DNA of 64,000 nucleotides from Tepidiforma sp. (GTDB lineage Bacteria; Chloroflexota; Dehalococcoidia; Tepidiformales; Tepidiformaceae). Location: positions 505,444 through 569,443 of the forward strand of contig BPIG01000001.1 of the NCBI GenBank assembly GCA_026003995.1, given 5' to 3'. The notes beneath the pieces are model-generated. The model was not told the origin of the DNA and did not search any database. It was given only the letters and a program-made list of their open reading frames with translations. Both the position numbers and the translations under genes were made by a program. Below, piece after piece: positions 890-12,587 of the stretch (the first letter of the stretch is position 1; every line of letters starts with the position of its first letter).

Positions 890-3196
890 CTAGTGTGCCG
901 GTGCGCGGCCCAGCTTCGCCTCCGCGTTCGCGATGATTTCGCGGGTCTGGTCGATCATGTCCGGGCTCACGCTGACGCTCGTGATTCCCCACTCGACGAG
1001 CTTCTCCGTGACCTCAGGGTAGACGCTCGGCGCCTGCCCGCAGATGGACGCGGTGATGCCGCGGCGGCGCGCCACGGTGACGGCGGTCTGGATCGCCGCC
1101 ATCACGGCCTCGTTCCGCTCGTCGAAGGTGTCCGCGAGGGCTTCGCTGTCGCGGTCGATGCCGAGCACGAGCTGCGTCAGGTCGTTCGACCCGATGGAGA
1201 TGCCGTCGATCCCGACGTCGATGAAGCGGTCGAGGATGATGACGTTCGAGGGAACCTCGACCATCATCCAGAGCTTGAAATCGTCGCCGCGGACGAGGCC
1301 CTGCTCGCTCATCAGCTGCTTGACGCCGCGGAGCTCATCCGGGGTGCGGACGAAGGGGACCATGACGTAGAGGTTCTTGAACTCGCGGCGGACGCCTTTG
1401 ATGGCTTCGAGTTCGAGCTGGAAGATGTCGGGCTCGCGGAGGTAGCGGCTGGCACCGCGGTAGCCGATCATCGGGTTTTCTTCGGCCGGCTCGAACTTCG
1501 CGCCGCCTTCGAGGTTGGCATACTCGTTGGTCTTGAAGTCGGTGAGGCGGTAGACGACGGGCCGGGGATTGAAGGCGCGGCAGAACTCCTTGATGCCTTC
1601 TTCGAGGCGGCGGGTGTACTCCTCGGGGTGCCCTTCCTCGATGAACTGGCGCGGGTGCTTGCCGATCTGGGCGACGATGAACTCGGCGCGGAGGAGGCCG
1701 ACGCCGTCGACGTGCCGCTTCGCGACCACCTCGGCGAGCTCGGGCTCAGCGAGATTGACGTACAGCTTCGTGGTCGTCTTGAGGGAGGCCGACCGCGCGT
1801 AGCGCTCCTTCTGGCGCTCGTACCAGGCGAGCCGGGCCTCGGCGCGGCCGTCGTAAATGCGGCCGGCCGAGCCGTCGACCGTGACTTCGCGGCCGACCTC
1901 GAGCGATGTAGCGCCGGCGACGCCGACGACGCACGGGATGCCGAGTTCGCGGCTGACGATGGCAGCGTGGCAGGTGCGGCCGCCCCGCTCCGTGACGATG
2001 GCGGCGGCGCGCTTCATCGCCGGGACGAAGTCGGGTGTCGTCATCTCGGCAACGAGGACATCGCCCTGCTTGACGATGTCGATTTCGCGCGGGTCGTGGA
2101 CGATGCGGACCGCGCCGACGCCGACGCCGGGCGATGCGGGCTGGCCGGTGAGGAGGACGGGCGCGGTTTCCTCCTCGCCCTCCTCGTCGTGGAACTCGTG
2201 CTTGAGCGTCGTAACGGGGCGGGCCTGGACGAGGTAGAACTGGCCTTTCTCGTAGGCCCATTCGATGTCCTGCGGGGCGCCGTAATGCTCCTCGACGGCG
2301 CGCCCGATGCGGGCGAGCTCACGGATTTCGGCGTCGGTGAGCTTCTGCTGCTCGCGCAGGTGCTCCGGCACGGGCAGCCAGGCGTTCGCCGCTTCGTGGC
2401 TGCCGTCGGCGTCGGGCCGCCGGGCGATCATGCGGTCCTGCGGTGTGACCGTCTTGGAGATGATCTGGAGCGACTCCTTCGCGACCAGGTAGAGGTCGGG
2501 CGAGATTTCGCCGGAGACGATGCCTTCGCCGAGCCCGTAGACGGCTTCGATGGTGATGCGGGTCCGGTCGGAGGTCACCGGCTCGACGGTGAACATCACG
2601 CCGGAGATTTCCGACTGCACCATGCGCTGCACGGGGACGGCGAGGCCGACCTTCGTGTGGTCGTAGCCGGATTCTTCGCGGTAGAAGATGGCGCGGGCTT
2701 CGAAGAGCGAGGCCCAGCAGGCCTGGACGGCCCGGACGACGTTGTCGGCGCCGACGACGTTGAGGAACGTGCTCTGCTGGCCGGCGAAGCTCGCTTCGGG
2801 GAGGTCCTCCGCAGTGGCCGAGCTGCGGACGGCGACGGGGCCTTCGCCGAGTTCGCGGTAGGCGGCGCGGATTTCGTCGGCGATGTGGGCCGGCATCGGC
2901 GCTTCCATGATGCGGCGGCGGATGTTCTCGGCGCGCTCGTTCAGGAGCTTCGTATCGTGCACGTCGAGCCCGAAGAGCTCCTTCCGGATGACCGGCTCGA
3001 GCCCGTTCTGCTGGATGAAGCGGAAGTAGGTATCCGCGGTGACGACGAAGCCGGGCGGGACCGGGATGGAGGCCCGGGTCAACTCACCGAGATTGGCGCC
3101 CTTGCCACCGACGAGGCCGATATCCTCGCGGCCTACCTCGGAGAACCAAACGACGGAACGAGTGACGCTTACCAATCTGTCTATACCTCCGCGCAT
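890..3196 (-). CDS. ppsA: phosphoenolpyruvate synthase (pyruvate, water dikinase)
   Basis: 768-aa ORF. It has the N-terminal ATP-grasp region (VGGKGANLGE), the swivel phosphohistidine motif (GGRTCHAAIVSRELGIPCVVG) and the C-terminal PEP-utilising barrel (GSNDLTQL). An alternative TTG start at 3175 is preceded by GGAGG. Confidence 0.93.
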   Translation of the reverse strand: MRGGIDRLVSVTRSVVWFSEVGREDIGLVGGKGANLGELTRASIPVPPGFVVTADTYFRFIQQNGLEPVIRKELFGLDVHDTKLLNERAENIRRRIMEAPMPAHIADEIRAAYRELGEGPVAVRSSATAEDLPEASFAGQQSTFLNVVGADNVVRAVQACWASLFEARAIFYREESGYDHTKVGLAVPVQRMVQSEISGVMFTVEPVTSDRTRITIEAVYGLGEGIVSGEISPDLYLVAKESLQIISKTVTPQDRMIARRPDADGSHEAANAWLPVPEHLREQQKLTDAEIRELARIGRAVEEHYGAPQDIEWAYEKGQFYLVQARPVTTLKHEFHDEEGEEETAPVLLTGQPASPGVGVGAVRIVHDPREIDIVKQGDVLVAEMTTPDFVPAMKRAAAIVTERGGRTCHAAIVSRELGIPCVVGVAGATSLEVGREVTVDGSAGRIYDGRAEARLAWYERQKERYARSASLKTTTKLYVNLAEPELAEVVAKRHVDGVGLLRAEFIVAQIGKHPRQFIEEGHPEEYTRRLEEGIKEFCRAFNPRPVVYRLTDFKTNEYANLEGGAKFEPAEENPMIGYRGASRYLREPDIFQLELEAIKGVRREFKNLYVMVPFVRTPDELRGVKQLMSEQGLVRGDDFKLWMMVEVPSNVIILDRFIDVGIDGISIGSNDLTQLVLGIDRDSEALADTFDERNEAVMAAIQTAVTVARRRGITASICGQAPSVYPEVTEKLVEWGITSVSVSPDMIDQTREIIANAEAKLGRAPAH

Positions 3197-3299: not shown

Positions 3300-5139
<1,840 letters not shown>

Positions 5140-9251: not shown

Positions 9252-11630
9252 ATGGCAACCGGCACGGAGGAACGAGCTGTCACGCTGAGCGTGAGCGGGA
9301 TGACCTGCGCGTCGTGCGTGCGCCGCGTCGAACGGGCGCTCAGCAAAGTCGAAGGCGTCGAAACTGCGAGCGTGAACTTCGCGGCGGAGACCGCCCGGGT
9401 GACGCTCGGCGGGCCCGTCGCCATCGAAGACCTGGTCGCCGCGGTCGAGAAGGCCGGCTACCGGGCCGCGCCGGTGACGGCCGGGGAGCGGCGCGACCTC
9501 TCGGCGGAAGCGCGGGGGAGCCTCATCCGGCTGCTCGCCGCATCGGTGTTCGCCGTCCCGGCCGTCCTCCTCGCGATGGCGATGGACATCGCCGGGCTGC
9601 ATCTGTTCGGCAGCCCCGCGCTGCACGGGTGGGTGGTGCTGGCGCTCGCGACGCCGGTCCAGGCCGGCCTCGGGTGGCGGTTCTACCGGGGCGCGTGGGC
9701 GAGCCTCCGGCAGCTCAACCCGAACATGGACGTGCTCGTGGCGCTTGGCACGTCGGTCGCCTACCTCTACAGCGCCTGGGTGGTGGTGAGCGGGCGGCAC
9801 GACACGCACATGTACTTCGACGTGAGCGTGGCCGTGCTGCTGTTCATCTCGATGGGCAAGTACTTCGAGGAGACCTCGAAAGGGGCCGCTTCACAGGCGA
9901 TCCGGGCGCTGCTCGCGCAGGCCCCCGCGACCGCCGCCGTGCTCCGCGACGGCTCGGAGATCGAGCTGCCGGTCGAGCAGGTCCGCGTTGGCGACCGCAT
10001 CGTGGTTCGCCCCGGCCAGCGGGTGCCGGTCGACGGCGTGGTGGTCGACGGCTCGAGCACCGTCGATGAATCGATGCTGACCGGCGAGTCGGTGCCCGTG
10101 GAGCGGAAGCCGGGTGACCCGGTCATCGGCGGCTCGCTGAACCGGAACGGCATGATGGTCATCGAAGCCACGGCGGTGGGCGCCGATGCCGCGCTGCAGC
10201 GGATGGTGCGGCTCATCGAAGAGGCGCAGGGGTCGAAGGCGCCGGTCGAGCGGCTGGTCGACCGTGTCGCTGCGGTCTTCGTCCCCGTGGTCATCGTGAT
10301 TGCGCTGGCGACGTTCCTCACCTGGGGCTGGGCGGCGGGCGACTGGCACCGGGGGATGACGGCGGCCGTGGCCGTCCTCGTCATCGCCTGCCCGTGCGCG
10401 CTCGGCCTCGCGACGCCGACGGCGATCATGGTCGGCACGGGGCTCGGCGCGAGCCGCGGCATCCTGATCCGGAACGCGGGCGTGCTCGAGCGGACGCGGA
10501 AGCTCGATGTCGTCGTGCTCGACAAGACCGGGACGCTCACGGCCGGGCGGCCGGTGGTCGCGGACGTCGTGCCGGTCGGGACGCTCTCGCGGGACGAGCT
10601 GCTCCGGCTGGCGGCGGCGGCAGAGTCGCCGAGCGAGCACCCCCTGAGCCGCGCGGTGGTCGACGCGGCGGCGGACGCCGGCATCGAACCGCCGGCTGCC
10701 ACACAGTTCGAGGCCGTGACGGCGCGGGGCGTGCAGGCGATGGTCGAGGGGCGCCTGGTGCAGGTTGGCAACCGGGCGATGTTCGAGGAGCTCGGGTTCA
10801 CGCTGGACCCGCTCAGCGCGGCGATCGGCGGCCTGGAAGCGCAGGGACGGACGGTCGCGATTGTGGCAGTCGACGGGACGGTCGCTGGCCTGCTTGGCCT
10901 CTTCGACGAGGTGAAACCAAACGCAGCGCGGGCCGTCGCGGCCCTCCATCGGCTCGGGCTCCGGGTGGTCATGCTGACGGGCGACAATGAGCGCGCGGCG
11001 GCGGCGGTGGCGGCACAGGTGGGCATCCGCGAGTTCACCGCGGGCATGCGTCCGGAGGAGAAGCTCGCCTACGTCCGCGGTCTGCAGGCGCAGGGGCTCG
11101 CGGTGGCGATGGCGGGGGATGGCATCAACGACGCCCCGGCGCTGGCGCAGGCCGATGTCGGGATTGCGATGAGCAACGGCACCGATGTCGCTATCGAAAC
11201 CGGCGACATTACGCTGCTGCATGGCGACGTGGCGAAGATTGCTGAAGCGATCGCGCTGTCGCGGGAAACGCTGACGACCATCAAGCAGAACCTGGCCTGG
11301 GCCTTCGGCTACAACGTGGTGGCTTTGCCGGTCGCGGCGCTCGGGCTGCTCAATCCCCTTTTCGCTGGCGCAGCGATGGCGCTGAGCTCGGTGAGTGTGA
11401 TGGCGAACAGCCTGCGGCTGCGGACGAAGGCGCGGGCGCTGGCGCGCGCCGCCGGGAACGAATACACGGCGCCCGTCGAGGGTGTGCTCCAGGCGAACCG
11501 CGGGCCGGTCATCGCGATGGCGGCGGCGTTCGTCCTGCTCGTCGTGCCGCTCGTCGTGTTCACCGGCATCGACCGGGGCTGGTTCGGGAGCGGGGGCGAC
11601 GCGGGAAGCCACGCGAGCCCGCACCAGTGA
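9252..11630 (+). CDS. copA: copper-translocating P1B-type ATPase
   Basis: 792 aa. N-terminal HMA GMTCASC, TM CPC motif (ACPCALGLATP), phosphorylation site DKTGTLT, SEHPL, and hinge GDGINDAPAL. Confidence 0.95.
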   Translation: MATGTEERAVTLSVSGMTCASCVRRVERALSKVEGVETASVNFAAETARVTLGGPVAIEDLVAAVEKAGYRAAPVTAGERRDLSAEARGSLIRLLAASVFAVPAVLLAMAMDIAGLHLFGSPALHGWVVLALATPVQAGLGWRFYRGAWASLRQLNPNMDVLVALGTSVAYLYSAWVVVSGRHDTHMYFDVSVAVLLFISMGKYFEETSKGAASQAIRALLAQAPATAAVLRDGSEIELPVEQVRVGDRIVVRPGQRVPVDGVVVDGSSTVDESMLTGESVPVERKPGDPVIGGSLNRNGMMVIEATAVGADAALQRMVRLIEEAQGSKAPVERLVDRVAAVFVPVVIVIALATFLTWGWAAGDWHRGMTAAVAVLVIACPCALGLATPTAIMVGTGLGASRGILIRNAGVLERTRKLDVVVLDKTGTLTAGRPVVADVVPVGTLSRDELLRLAAAAESPSEHPLSRAVVDAAADAGIEPPAATQFEAVTARGVQAMVEGRLVQVGNRAMFEELGFTLDPLSAAIGGLEAQGRTVAIVAVDGTVAGLLGLFDEVKPNAARAVAALHRLGLRVVMLTGDNERAAAAVAAQVGIREFTAGMRPEEKLAYVRGLQAQGLAVAMAGDGINDAPALAQADVGIAMSNGTDVAIETGDITLLHGDVAKIAEAIALSRETLTTIKQNLAWAFGYNVVALPVAALGLLNPLFAGAAMALSSVSVMANSLRLRTKARALARAAGNEYTAPVEGVLQANRGPVIAMAAAFVLLVVPLVVFTGIDRGWFGSGGDAGSHASPHQ

Positions 11631-11763
11631 GGTCCGGCGCCGGGAGCCGATTGTAAAATCATCGCAAATGCTATTGACGTGATGAATCGTCTGTCCGGTA
11701 ACATCCGGCTGCGGACACGGCACGGTTCGCAGAAAGGAGCACGATTTCCGTGAATGACCCAGG

Positions 11764-11793
11764 CAGACAGACAGACAGACAGACAGACAGACA
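11764..11793. repeat. perfect tetranucleotide microsatellite (CAGA)7+CA
   Basis: cagacagacagacagacagacagacagaca read directly from the sequence, preceded by an imperfect unit cagg. It is the only simple-sequence repeat of this kind I see in the window. Confidence 0.97.
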
Positions 11794-11871
11794 CGGGTCC
11801 AGCGCTCTCGACTGACCGCCGCCCTTCTCGCCGCCGTCGCCGGGCTGGGGCTTACTGGCCTGGCAGCGGCC

Positions 11872-12153
11872 ATGACGGTCAACACTGATTCGTGGAACTG
11901 CCCCTGGTCTGGGACGACCAACTGGCAGGGCGTCGGCGCTGTCGCAAGTACGGCTGCGTCGTCCTGCGCGGTGGTGACGACCGTCCAGTTGAGCTACCAG
12001 TATGGCGGGAACTGGTACGCGAACTCGTACAAGTACGGCTCGACATACGTGAGCGACAGCACAGGCCTCGCGATCAGCGAGGCGTTCACCCGCCACCAGA
12101 TCGGCGTTGCCGGTTACGGGTGGGGACAGGAGGAGTACACATGGATTCCCTGA
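11872..12153 (+). CDS. small Trp/Tyr/Gly-rich two-Cys protein; the in-frame upstream stretch encodes a start-less Sec signal peptide (see findings)
   Basis: Listed 93-aa ORF. The same frame is open from 11758 and encodes ...RSRLTAALLAAVAGLGLTGLAAA immediately before M1. Upstream GTG 11750 and ATG 11754 are out of frame by one repeat unit. No family recognised. Confidence 0.6.
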   Translation: MTVNTDSWNCPWSGTTNWQGVGAVASTAASSCAVVTTVQLSYQYGGNWYANSYKYGSTYVSDSTGLAISEAFTRHQIGVAGYGWGQEEYTWIP

Positions 12154-12587
12154 CGCGGTGCTTCGCCGACCGGAGCATCATGACCATCGCCGTTTCCGGA
12201 CTGGCTGCTCTCGCGATGGCCTTCGCCGCCGGGACCCTGTCGACCGCCGACGGCCGCGCGACCGATGCCGCCGTGATTCCTGCTGGCGAACGGCACTGGG
12301 TGCTCGAGGGAGCGCCTGCGGAGCAGCAGGGCGCCCTCGCGGACCTCGAGGTGGCGCGGGAGGAGTACGTCGCCGCCATCGAGGCCGAGCGGAAGTGCCT
12401 GACCGACCAGGGCATTTGGGTCTCCGATACCTGGTGGGAAGACAACCAGCTGCGCTACACCTTTGGCGGGGTGCCATCCCGCGAGCAGGCGGCCTCCGTC
12501 TTCGAGGTCTACCGCGCCTGCCATGCGACCTACGCGCGGAACGTCGCGACCGGCTGGGCGATCGGGTCGGCGCCCGCGCAGCCCTAG
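12141..12587 (+). CDS. hypothetical membrane-anchored or secreted protein (148 aa)
   Basis: ATG 12141 is preceded by GGAGGAG and overlaps the previous stop by 13 nt. N-terminal hydrophobic segment MTIAVSGLAALAMAFAAGTL is followed by a soluble domain with 2 Cys. The 5' part of listed ORF 11892.. is out of frame with the real upstream gene. Confidence 0.6.
   Translation: MDSLTRCFADRSIMTIAVSGLAALAMAFAAGTLSTADGRATDAAVIPAGERHWVLEGAPAEQQGALADLEVAREEYVAAIEAERKCLTDQGIWVSDTWWEDNQLRYTFGGVPSREQAASVFEVYRACHATYARNVATGWAIGSAPAQP

Follow-up and report, generated by a model that had tools for sequence, protein, structure and literature searches.

Can a short tandem repeat decide whether a bacterium makes a small secreted protein? 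The question is raised by a locus in a 64-kb stretch of a Tepidiforma (Chloroflexota) genome, contig BPIG01000001.1, which we refer to as the window (the whole 64,000 nucleotides that were analyzed). Here a perfect (CAGA)7 tract lies between two start codons and a signal-peptide coding stretch that runs into a 93-codon mature domain, and neither start is in frame with that stretch. A preliminary description of this DNA proposed a slipped-strand phase-variation switch caught in its OFF state, and the proposal is supported by an allelic series of 5 to 9 repeat units and by the bookkeeping of the reading frames. In our view Tepidiforma likely has a contingency locus here, with translation switched by phase variation of a simple sequence repeat. 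Its core elements are the following.

11733-11740, forward strand: Shine-Dalgarno site AAAGGAGC, from reading of the sequence.
11750..11752, forward strand: GTG start in frame 2, 10 nt past the GGAG, out of frame in this allele.
11754..11756, forward strand: ATG start in frame 0, 14 nt past the GGAG, out of frame in this allele.
11764..11791, forward strand: (CAGA)7, a perfect tetranucleotide tract with an imperfect CAGG before it and CA after it.
11794..11871, forward strand: signal-peptide coding stretch RVQRSRLTAALLAAVAGLGLTGLAAA in frame 1, without a start codon of its own in the 7-unit allele.
11872..12153, forward strand: mature domain of 93 codons plus stop, a predicted secreted all-β sandwich of an orphan family.

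The coordinates that the preliminary description gave for the ribosome-binding site, both starts, the tract, the stops and the third frame all match the window sequence. The GTG frame translates as VNDPGRQTDRQTDRHGSSALD and ends after 21 codons at the TGA at 11813-11815, while the ATG frame translates as MTQADRQTDRQTDTG... and ends after 44 codons at the TGA at 11886-11888, yielding the listed open reading frame (ORF) 11754..11888. Past the TGA at 11755-11757 the third frame stays open from 11758, and its first ATG, GTG or TTG is ATG 11872. This frame encodes PRQTDRQTDRQTRVQRSRLTAALLAAVAGLGLTGLAAA/MTVNTDSW..., continuous with the listed ORF 11872..12153. The tract thus lies between the starts and the signal peptide, at 8-14 nt from the beginning of the coding region. 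A gene on the minus strand over the tract was considered and rejected; long minus-strand ORFs overlap copA and were taken as the spurious ORFs usual at 69% GC.

The tract is the longest perfect microsatellite in the window, with 28 nt as compared to 12 nt for the runner-up, and no homopolymer of 7 nt or more occurs anywhere in the 64 kb. Additionally, a 16-nt (CAGA)4 probe with 1 mismatch allowed gave 0 matches in 100 dinucleotide-preserving shuffles of the sequence. For these two reasons, its length and the absence of shuffle matches, we conclude that the tract did not arise by chance. Its unit length of 4 nt is not divisible by 3 and it sits inside the 5′ coding region, where (CAGA)n contains no stop codon in any forward-strand frame and is read as a cyclic RQTD peptide whose net charge is zero. 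As this peptide is hydrophilic and uncharged overall, changes in tract length would leave the n-region of the signal peptide undisturbed. A (CAGA)5 pattern scan of genome contigs returned at least 120 matches and is uninformative on other Tepidiforma loci; among the matches listed, none had the conserved leader described below or the switched gene. The CAXXBX01 contigs that we inspected (L029, L079, L096, L102 and L110), labelled 'MAG: Dehalococcoidia bacterium', have 38-42% GC, are non-coding and are rich in CAGA, CATA and CA microsatellites; they look like eukaryotic contamination of the bin of a metagenome-assembled genome (MAG).

If the tract is a switch, its length should vary among relatives, and we found the same locus in 10 other public contigs with 5, 6, 7, 8 or 9 CAGA units; the tract is not invariant at 7. 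Loci were gathered by three routes: an exact look-up of the gene product, a look-up of the downstream partner protein, and a DNA pattern search. The sample is small and the routes are mixed and partly biased, so that ON:OFF frequencies carry little meaning, and all of the alleles come from consensus assemblies. In the clade of the window, which we call clade A, the alleles are as follows.

5 units (L021): GTG 11750 in frame; the NCBI annotation is a 131-aa protein, WP_297675673.1.
6 units (L004, L005 and the protein P0007): ATG 11754 in frame; gene callers yield a 131-aa precursor.
7 units (the window, L003, L022 and L023): neither start in frame.
8 units (L001, which is the complete genome CP042829.1, and L002): GTG 11750 in frame, giving a 135-aa precursor.
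9 units (L019): ATG 11754 in frame.

It had been predicted that six units would fuse the ATG to the signal peptide, that eight would fuse the GTG to it, and that seven is the only class in which neither start reaches it. The frame computation agrees with the first two predictions and both alleles occur in nature; the third holds for all four 7-unit sequences. In CP042829.1, the 135-aa GTG precursor (L001 2875-3282) is annotated as the 93-aa ORF WP_158068125.1, with the signal peptide omitted. The 93-aa ORF is identical in this 2.75-Mb complete genome, a MAG and a JGI contig.

The closest pairs of alleles differ at the tract and almost nowhere else. The 6-unit contigs L004 and L005 and the 7-unit contigs L022 and L023 come from four independent samples, and comparison of the two classes gave 0 mismatches over 2220 and 1575 bp and one 4-nt gap, the tract being the sole difference. 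L002 (8 units) and L019 (9 units) have 3 mismatches in 1861 bp plus one 4-nt gap. In a tree built from the flanks, in which about 5% of sites vary, the tract must have changed length independently at least 4-5 times among ten sequences. The tract mutates far faster than the flanking sequence.

Could these differences in repeat number be sequencing or assembly errors? Repeats can be miscounted, several of the loci are from low-coverage metagenome contigs, and L007, a contig of a sister clade, has a split copA and a 39-nt indel besides. Against this, the tract is 20-36 nt long and fits well inside a single read, all changes are of whole 4-nt units, and the same lengths recur in independent assemblies that agree on the flanks: 6 units in JGI and Logan contigs, 7 units in ENA, Logan and JGI contigs as well as the window, and 8 units in a complete genome and a MAG. 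Most pairs of sequences, aligned over 1.5-4 kb, have no indel other than the tract. Because the changes in tract length occur on near-identical flanks, we conclude that they reflect localized hypermutation, and that an assembly artefact, which the preliminary description had named as a way for its proposal to fail, is extremely improbable.

The phase-variation mechanism would then work as follows. Slipped-strand mispairing during replication would add or remove 4-nt units, and each step would shift the frame of the signal peptide and mature domain relative to the start codons. With n = 2 mod 3 (5 or 8 units), translation would proceed from the GTG, and with n = 0 mod 3 (6 or 9 units) from the ATG. 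With n = 1 mod 3, as in the 7 units of the window, the frames of both starts would close after 21 and 44 codons and the exported protein would not be made. The ATG of clade A would raise the ON classes from one third to two thirds. The two starts differ in spacer (10 versus 14 nt) and in codon strength, which makes two distinct ON levels plausible.

How old are the two starts? The Shine-Dalgarno core (A/G)AAGGAG is kept in the lineages whose DNA was read, with the variant GGAAAGG in lineage G, and the start-codon spacer is 9-11 nt in lineages A, B, C, E and F and 7 nt in D. GTG, with the 9-11 nt spacer kept in those five lineages, is the ancestral start. ATG 11754 is specific to clade A, which has GTGAATGACC where clade B has GTGAAGGGAAC; clade B carries GTGAAGGG at the position of the ATG and has no second start. 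The preliminary description of two starts in two frames therefore holds for clade A but not for its sister clade B, where there is one start and one of three classes is ON.

An alternative is that the tract lies in the 5′ untranslated region (UTR) and that the real start is downstream, at ATG 11872 or at a non-canonical start, for example CTG 11812, so that the repeats would at most tune the mRNA or the efficiency of translation. Several observations could be read this way. NCBI annotates even the 8-unit CP042829.1 allele as a 93-aa ORF, clades A and D have Met as the first residue of the mature domain, and the 44-aa ORF of the ATG frame ends 14 nt past ATG 11872, which makes termination-reinitiation conceivable. 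Yet no Shine-Dalgarno site precedes ATG 11872, and on reading the window between the tract and this codon we found no sequence resembling a promoter or a ribosome binding site; the promoter-like region, the leader hairpin and the Shine-Dalgarno site are all upstream of the tract. Lineages A-F likewise keep a strong Shine-Dalgarno site there, followed by a start codon with a 7-11 nt spacer. Clades B and C, like most of the distant homologues (P0014, P0015 and P0017), have Thr in place of the Met at 11872, and P0016 has Asn. Because this Met is not conserved, ATG 11872 is unlikely to be the ancestral start, and by sequence it appears to be simply the first codon past the predicted cleavage site rather than a real start.

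The stretch between the tract and 11872 also has the features of an exported N-terminus. By inspection, every full-length homologue has a basic n-region, a hydrophobic core and an A-x-A motif before (M/T)(T/S)(V/F)N(T/S)DSW, as had been described for the window, and none of them lacks a signal peptide. In every lineage the stretch encodes a canonical signal peptide that stays in the frame of the mature domain despite divergence of its sequence. Two invariant Cys residues in the mature domain fit an exported protein, and invariant His and Asp residues are present as well. An AlphaFold model has an all-β domain at residues 37-131 with a predicted local distance difference test score (pLDDT) above 90 and a disordered N-terminus; the first strand begins at residue 37, just ahead of the predicted cleavage site. 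Altogether we regard a UTR location of the tract as quite improbable.

Another way in which the repeat might fail to act as a switch is recoding: if ribosomes underwent programmed frameshifting on the tract, or transcription slipped on it, the frame would be restored and OFF alleles would still be expressed. The many out-of-frame consensus alleles that persist despite purifying selection would be explained in this way, and lineages in which the repeat is poly-G (see below) could in principle slip at transcription. However, we see no known slippery heptamer or stimulatory structure, the only Rfam match being a spurious one to a long non-coding RNA, and CAGA repeats are not a homopolymeric substrate for slippage. 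Moreover, the offset that is needed varies by allele (+1 or -1), and a fixed recoding signal cannot serve both. We judge recoding to be very improbable, slightly more so than the downstream start.

Is the repeat restricted to the clade of the window? The homologous position in other lineages, of which E and F were found via the partner protein, has the following content.

Lineage B (about 80% amino-acid identity; L007, L008, L024 and L025): (ACAG)4, 5, 8 and 8, respectively, behind a single GTG that is out of frame in all.
Lineage C (L006): an interrupted tract, with a TTG out of frame.
Lineage D (L009): G7 at 3032-3038, with an ATG in frame.
Lineage E (L158-L160): G7 (in L158 at about 867-873), with an ATG out of frame; G6 would be ON.
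Lineage F (L150 with G12 at about 484-495; L148-L149 and L151-L156 with G9 or G10): ATG out of frame, or gene deleted.
Lineage G (L026): a (CA)5(TA)4 run, with an ambiguous start state.

The tract of clade B is at the same position as that of clade A, behind a GTG with an identical 10-nt spacer. Between L007 and L008 there are 5 mismatches in 6.3 kb, a difference of one repeat unit, and one 39-nt indel elsewhere. This indel (L007 about 3303-3330) separates two small genes, and in the same contig (FWPU01003028.1) copA is split at 416-2800 into ORFs of 495 and 297 aa; these changes are either real decay or an assembly error. Lineages D, E and F have no CAGA tract; they have poly-G in the codons of the signal-peptide n-region at the homologous position. 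In lineage E the gene was not called by the annotation because the ATG is out of frame. In lineage F the poly-G is polymorphic (G9, G10 and G12) next to an identical partner protein, and its length sets the frame. L150 has an intact gene with G12, which is out of frame. Seven contigs (L148, L149, L151-L153, L155 and L156) combine G9 with an internal deletion that removes most of the gene, and L154 has the same deletion with G10, so that 8 of 9 contigs retain only the 5′ end, including the G9 or G10 tract, and ~12 codons at the 3′ end. The switched gene is in this sense polymorphic for presence or absence, while the partner is kept. L147 begins inside the signal peptide and is uninformative on the G tract. 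In lineage G, L026 200-252 contains the conserved leader, a GTG out of frame, the run CACACGCACACACACATATATAT and then an ATG at 250; the database protein of this homologue, P0013 (147 aa), is a read-through of the leader. Two, and possibly three, repeat classes therefore occupy one position of one gene.

The sequence upstream of the tract is conserved as well, and it includes two further elements in the window.

11674..11704, forward strand: promoter-like region, inferred, with a -35 element TTGACG at 11674-11679, a 19-nt spacer and a -10 element TAACAT at 11699-11704.
11709..11732, forward strand: GC-rich 5′-UTR hairpin directly 5′ of the Shine-Dalgarno site.

The arrangement of TTGACR, 19 nt and TAnnnT is common to lineages A, B, C and G; a promoter scanner found no promoter at the window locus, the scanner being limited to spacers of 16-18 nt. 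Across clades A, B, C and G (L001, L006, L007 and L026) the leader GGACACGGCACGGTTCGCGG hardly varies while its surroundings have diverged, and RNAalifold with five lineages gives a hairpin stem of 8+2 bp. A G>A change at 11731 that is private to the window turns a U.G pair of this hairpin into U-A. The hairpin may be a 5′-terminal stabilizing stem-loop or a regulatory site. At the position of the leader, lineages D-F differ in sequence but are GC-rich too, and these stretches were judged foldable by eye only. A scan of metagenome contigs for the conserved leader yielded 2 contigs only.

Does the variation matter to the cell, or is it neutral instability of a microsatellite in a dispensable gene, with OFF alleles as the first step of gene loss and no adaptive switching? 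In favor of this explanation, no function could be assigned to the product. Clades B, C, E and F are seen only OFF, most of the gene is deleted in 8 of 9 lineage F contigs, and the ON:OFF ratio in clade A of 7:4 matches the 2:1 that is expected by chance. The coding sequence argues otherwise. All 9 of the mature domains compared have exactly 93 codons and no stop, and the ratio of nonsynonymous to synonymous substitution (dN/dS; Nei-Gojobori) is 0.06-0.2 in all pairs, with synonymous divergence (dS) >1 between lineages. The ratio is also low where only OFF alleles are seen (0.13 for B versus B, 0.07 for B versus C and 0.06 for E versus F), domains are intact in every full-length copy including those of OFF-only lineages, and no OFF allele has a secondary disabling mutation. 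Given the intact domains and low dN/dS, we reject a pseudogene, with the deletion variant of lineage F as the exception. The tract points in the same direction: clades A and B keep perfect tracts across saturated synonymous divergence, two repeat classes are found at one codon position in different lineages, and the second start codon of clade A halves the OFF classes. A perfect repeat that outlasts saturated synonymous divergence implies either selection for the tract or its constant renewal by slippage, and from the substitution ratios OFF states must be short-lived on an evolutionary time scale. We therefore consider neutral instability unlikely, though clearly less so than any of the alternatives above.

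A number of observations weigh against a phase-variable locus and temper our confidence in it. Every consensus allele outside of clades A and D is OFF, which could mean that the need for the protein is relaxed or that there is an unrecognized route of initiation, and one lineage (F) has mostly deleted the gene. The ON:OFF ratio of clade A, as noted, is that of chance. For the poly-G lineages, lengths taken from short-read assemblies deserve less trust than counts of tetranucleotide units. With 5-9 units the CAGA tracts are shorter than most tabulated Haemophilus influenzae tracts, so the switching rates may be modest. A frame plot of GC content at third codon positions, based on only the 26 codons of the signal peptide, gave 0.77 for frame 1 and 0.85 for frame 2, values that do not tell the frames apart. 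Finally, since the data are consensus assemblies, heterogeneity within populations, the switching rate and reversibility within a clone rest on inference, and the use of both starts, export of the protein and an adaptive value of switching are likewise deduced from sequence only.

What does the switched gene do, and with what? It is followed by a second small gene.

12141..12587, forward strand: partner gene of 148 aa, with an N-terminal transmembrane helix and a conserved domain with 2 Cys.

The two genes share 13 nt, and the partner is preceded by a separate Shine-Dalgarno site, GGAGGAG; having this site, it is probably expressed in either state of the switch. It is co-conserved with the first gene in 7 of 7 lineages and is kept even where the first gene is deleted. 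Its structure model, a transmembrane helix with a helical and a small β domain, is of low confidence (pLDDT 58). The gene pair is always directly upstream of ispG, in the conserved order csoR-copZ-copA, switched gene, 148-aa gene, ispG, MOSC. On the other side of the pair are copper genes: csoR-copZ-copA in lineages A-D (9252-11630 in the window, and upstream in L001, L004 and L009) and a cupredoxin-like gene in lineage E (L158 1-717). A link to copper based on this neighborhood is suggestive only.

Searches for known families with the first protein gave little. Among 1.84 billion representative proteins, phmmer found only 7 matches at E<=0.001, which form the query's own cluster, represented by P0002. 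There was no match in Pfam, where the partner had only a sub-threshold DUF6162 hit, and none in PADLOC; NCBIfam gave only noise, and PDB sequence profiles gave no significant match (best E>=0.06). With Foldseek, the best E was 0.018 in PDB and 0.002 in BFVD at a template modelling (TM) score of about 0.4-0.47, the hits being generic Ig/FnIII-like or CBM-like sandwiches. As speculation, deletion of the gene with the partner kept, together with the many OFF alleles, would fit a product that is often disadvantageous, and equally speculative candidate roles are a phage receptor, a surface or surface-layer (S-layer)-associated component, or a toxin with a retained immunity partner.

Beyond the switch itself, we tentatively suggest, at somewhat less than even confidence, that this is an ancient Tepidiforma contingency locus in which selection has acted on mutability itself. 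A mutable tract would then have been kept at the same codon position in nearly every lineage while its type turned over, from CAGA to poly-G and possibly to a CA/TA run. One clade would have gained a second start, and the gene would often have been turned OFF or deleted with the membrane-anchored partner always kept. This is what would be expected of a secreted or surface factor on which selection fluctuates in populations of hot springs. If this is true, no phase-variable system would have been documented earlier in Chloroflexota or in any free-living thermophile. For a hot-spring member of the Chloroflexota, public metagenomes already contain a natural series of alleles with the predicted ON and OFF classes, which points to bet-hedging by localized hypermutation in free-living thermophilic communities. 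Cultured strains of Tepidiforma exist, and with an operon of 2 genes and a switch of 28 nt the locus also offers a tractable handle that may reveal a fluctuating pressure such as phage, predation or metal stress, and the role of the orphan secreted protein. It further exposes a problem of annotation, in that gene callers truncate or miss the gene according to its repeat class.

How does the locus compare to known systems? In Campylobacter, Neisseria and Helicobacter, many poly-G/C phase-variable loci per genome make up a phasome. Lineages D, E and F resemble these genes in their use of a length-polymorphic G7-G12 run in the 5′ coding region to set the frame; the difference is that in Tepidiforma a single such locus is known, with no other long repeat tract in the 64-kb window. 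In Mycoplasma, a surface lipoprotein is reportedly switched ON and OFF by localized frameshift at a poly-A tract in its N-terminal or signal region. The likeness is a hypermutable tract in the region that encodes the N-terminus of an exported protein, whereas the Mycoplasma tract is poly-A, the product is a lipoprotein, and the bacterium is host-associated and wall-less.

The closest likeness in logic is to licA of H. influenzae, which has a tetranucleotide tract near the 5′ end of its ORF and initiation codons in two of the three frames (PMC2212159). The lic1A-like logic that the preliminary description saw in two starts before a tetranucleotide tract matches licA (PMC2212159), in clade A only. 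Both licA, with (CAAT)n, and the Tepidiforma gene have a 5′ in-ORF tetranucleotide tract, starts in two frames, one of three classes OFF, and unit numbers that vary between isolates. They differ in that the licA tract has 6-33 units in tabulated isolates (PMC2212159) versus 5-9 in Tepidiforma, and that licA encodes a cytoplasmic choline kinase as compared to a small predicted secreted protein. The Tepidiforma repeat, unlike that of licA, precedes or lies in the n-region of a signal peptide, and its switching is a prediction from sequence. The host of licA is a host-adapted Gram-negative, while Tepidiforma is a free-living, monoderm, thermophilic member of the Chloroflexota with peptidoglycan and an S-layer (PMC10284905).

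More generally, tabulated H. influenzae tracts mostly have 8-38 units, with a few of 5-6, and its tetranucleotide tracts, including GACA, typically encode N-terminal hydrophilic tetrapeptide repeats without net charge (PMC2651432). As GACA is a cyclic permutation of CAGA, the (GACA)n tract of lgtC is alike in its unit and in being a 5′-terminal, in-ORF, uncharged hydrophilic repeat (PMC2651432); it differs in having 8-38 units and in belonging to a glycosyltransferase gene with no sequence homology to the Tepidiforma gene. Nearly all documented cases of repeat-driven phase variation are from pathogens and commensals adapted to a host (PMC11868660, PMC3711429), and our literature searches found no description of it in Tepidiforma or any Chloroflexota; the preliminary description, which had correctly guessed a Chloroflexota-like genome, was likewise not aware of one. 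The mechanism is already known, of the licA/lgtC type, and what is new is the host, the orphan gene pair, and the turnover of repeat classes at one position.

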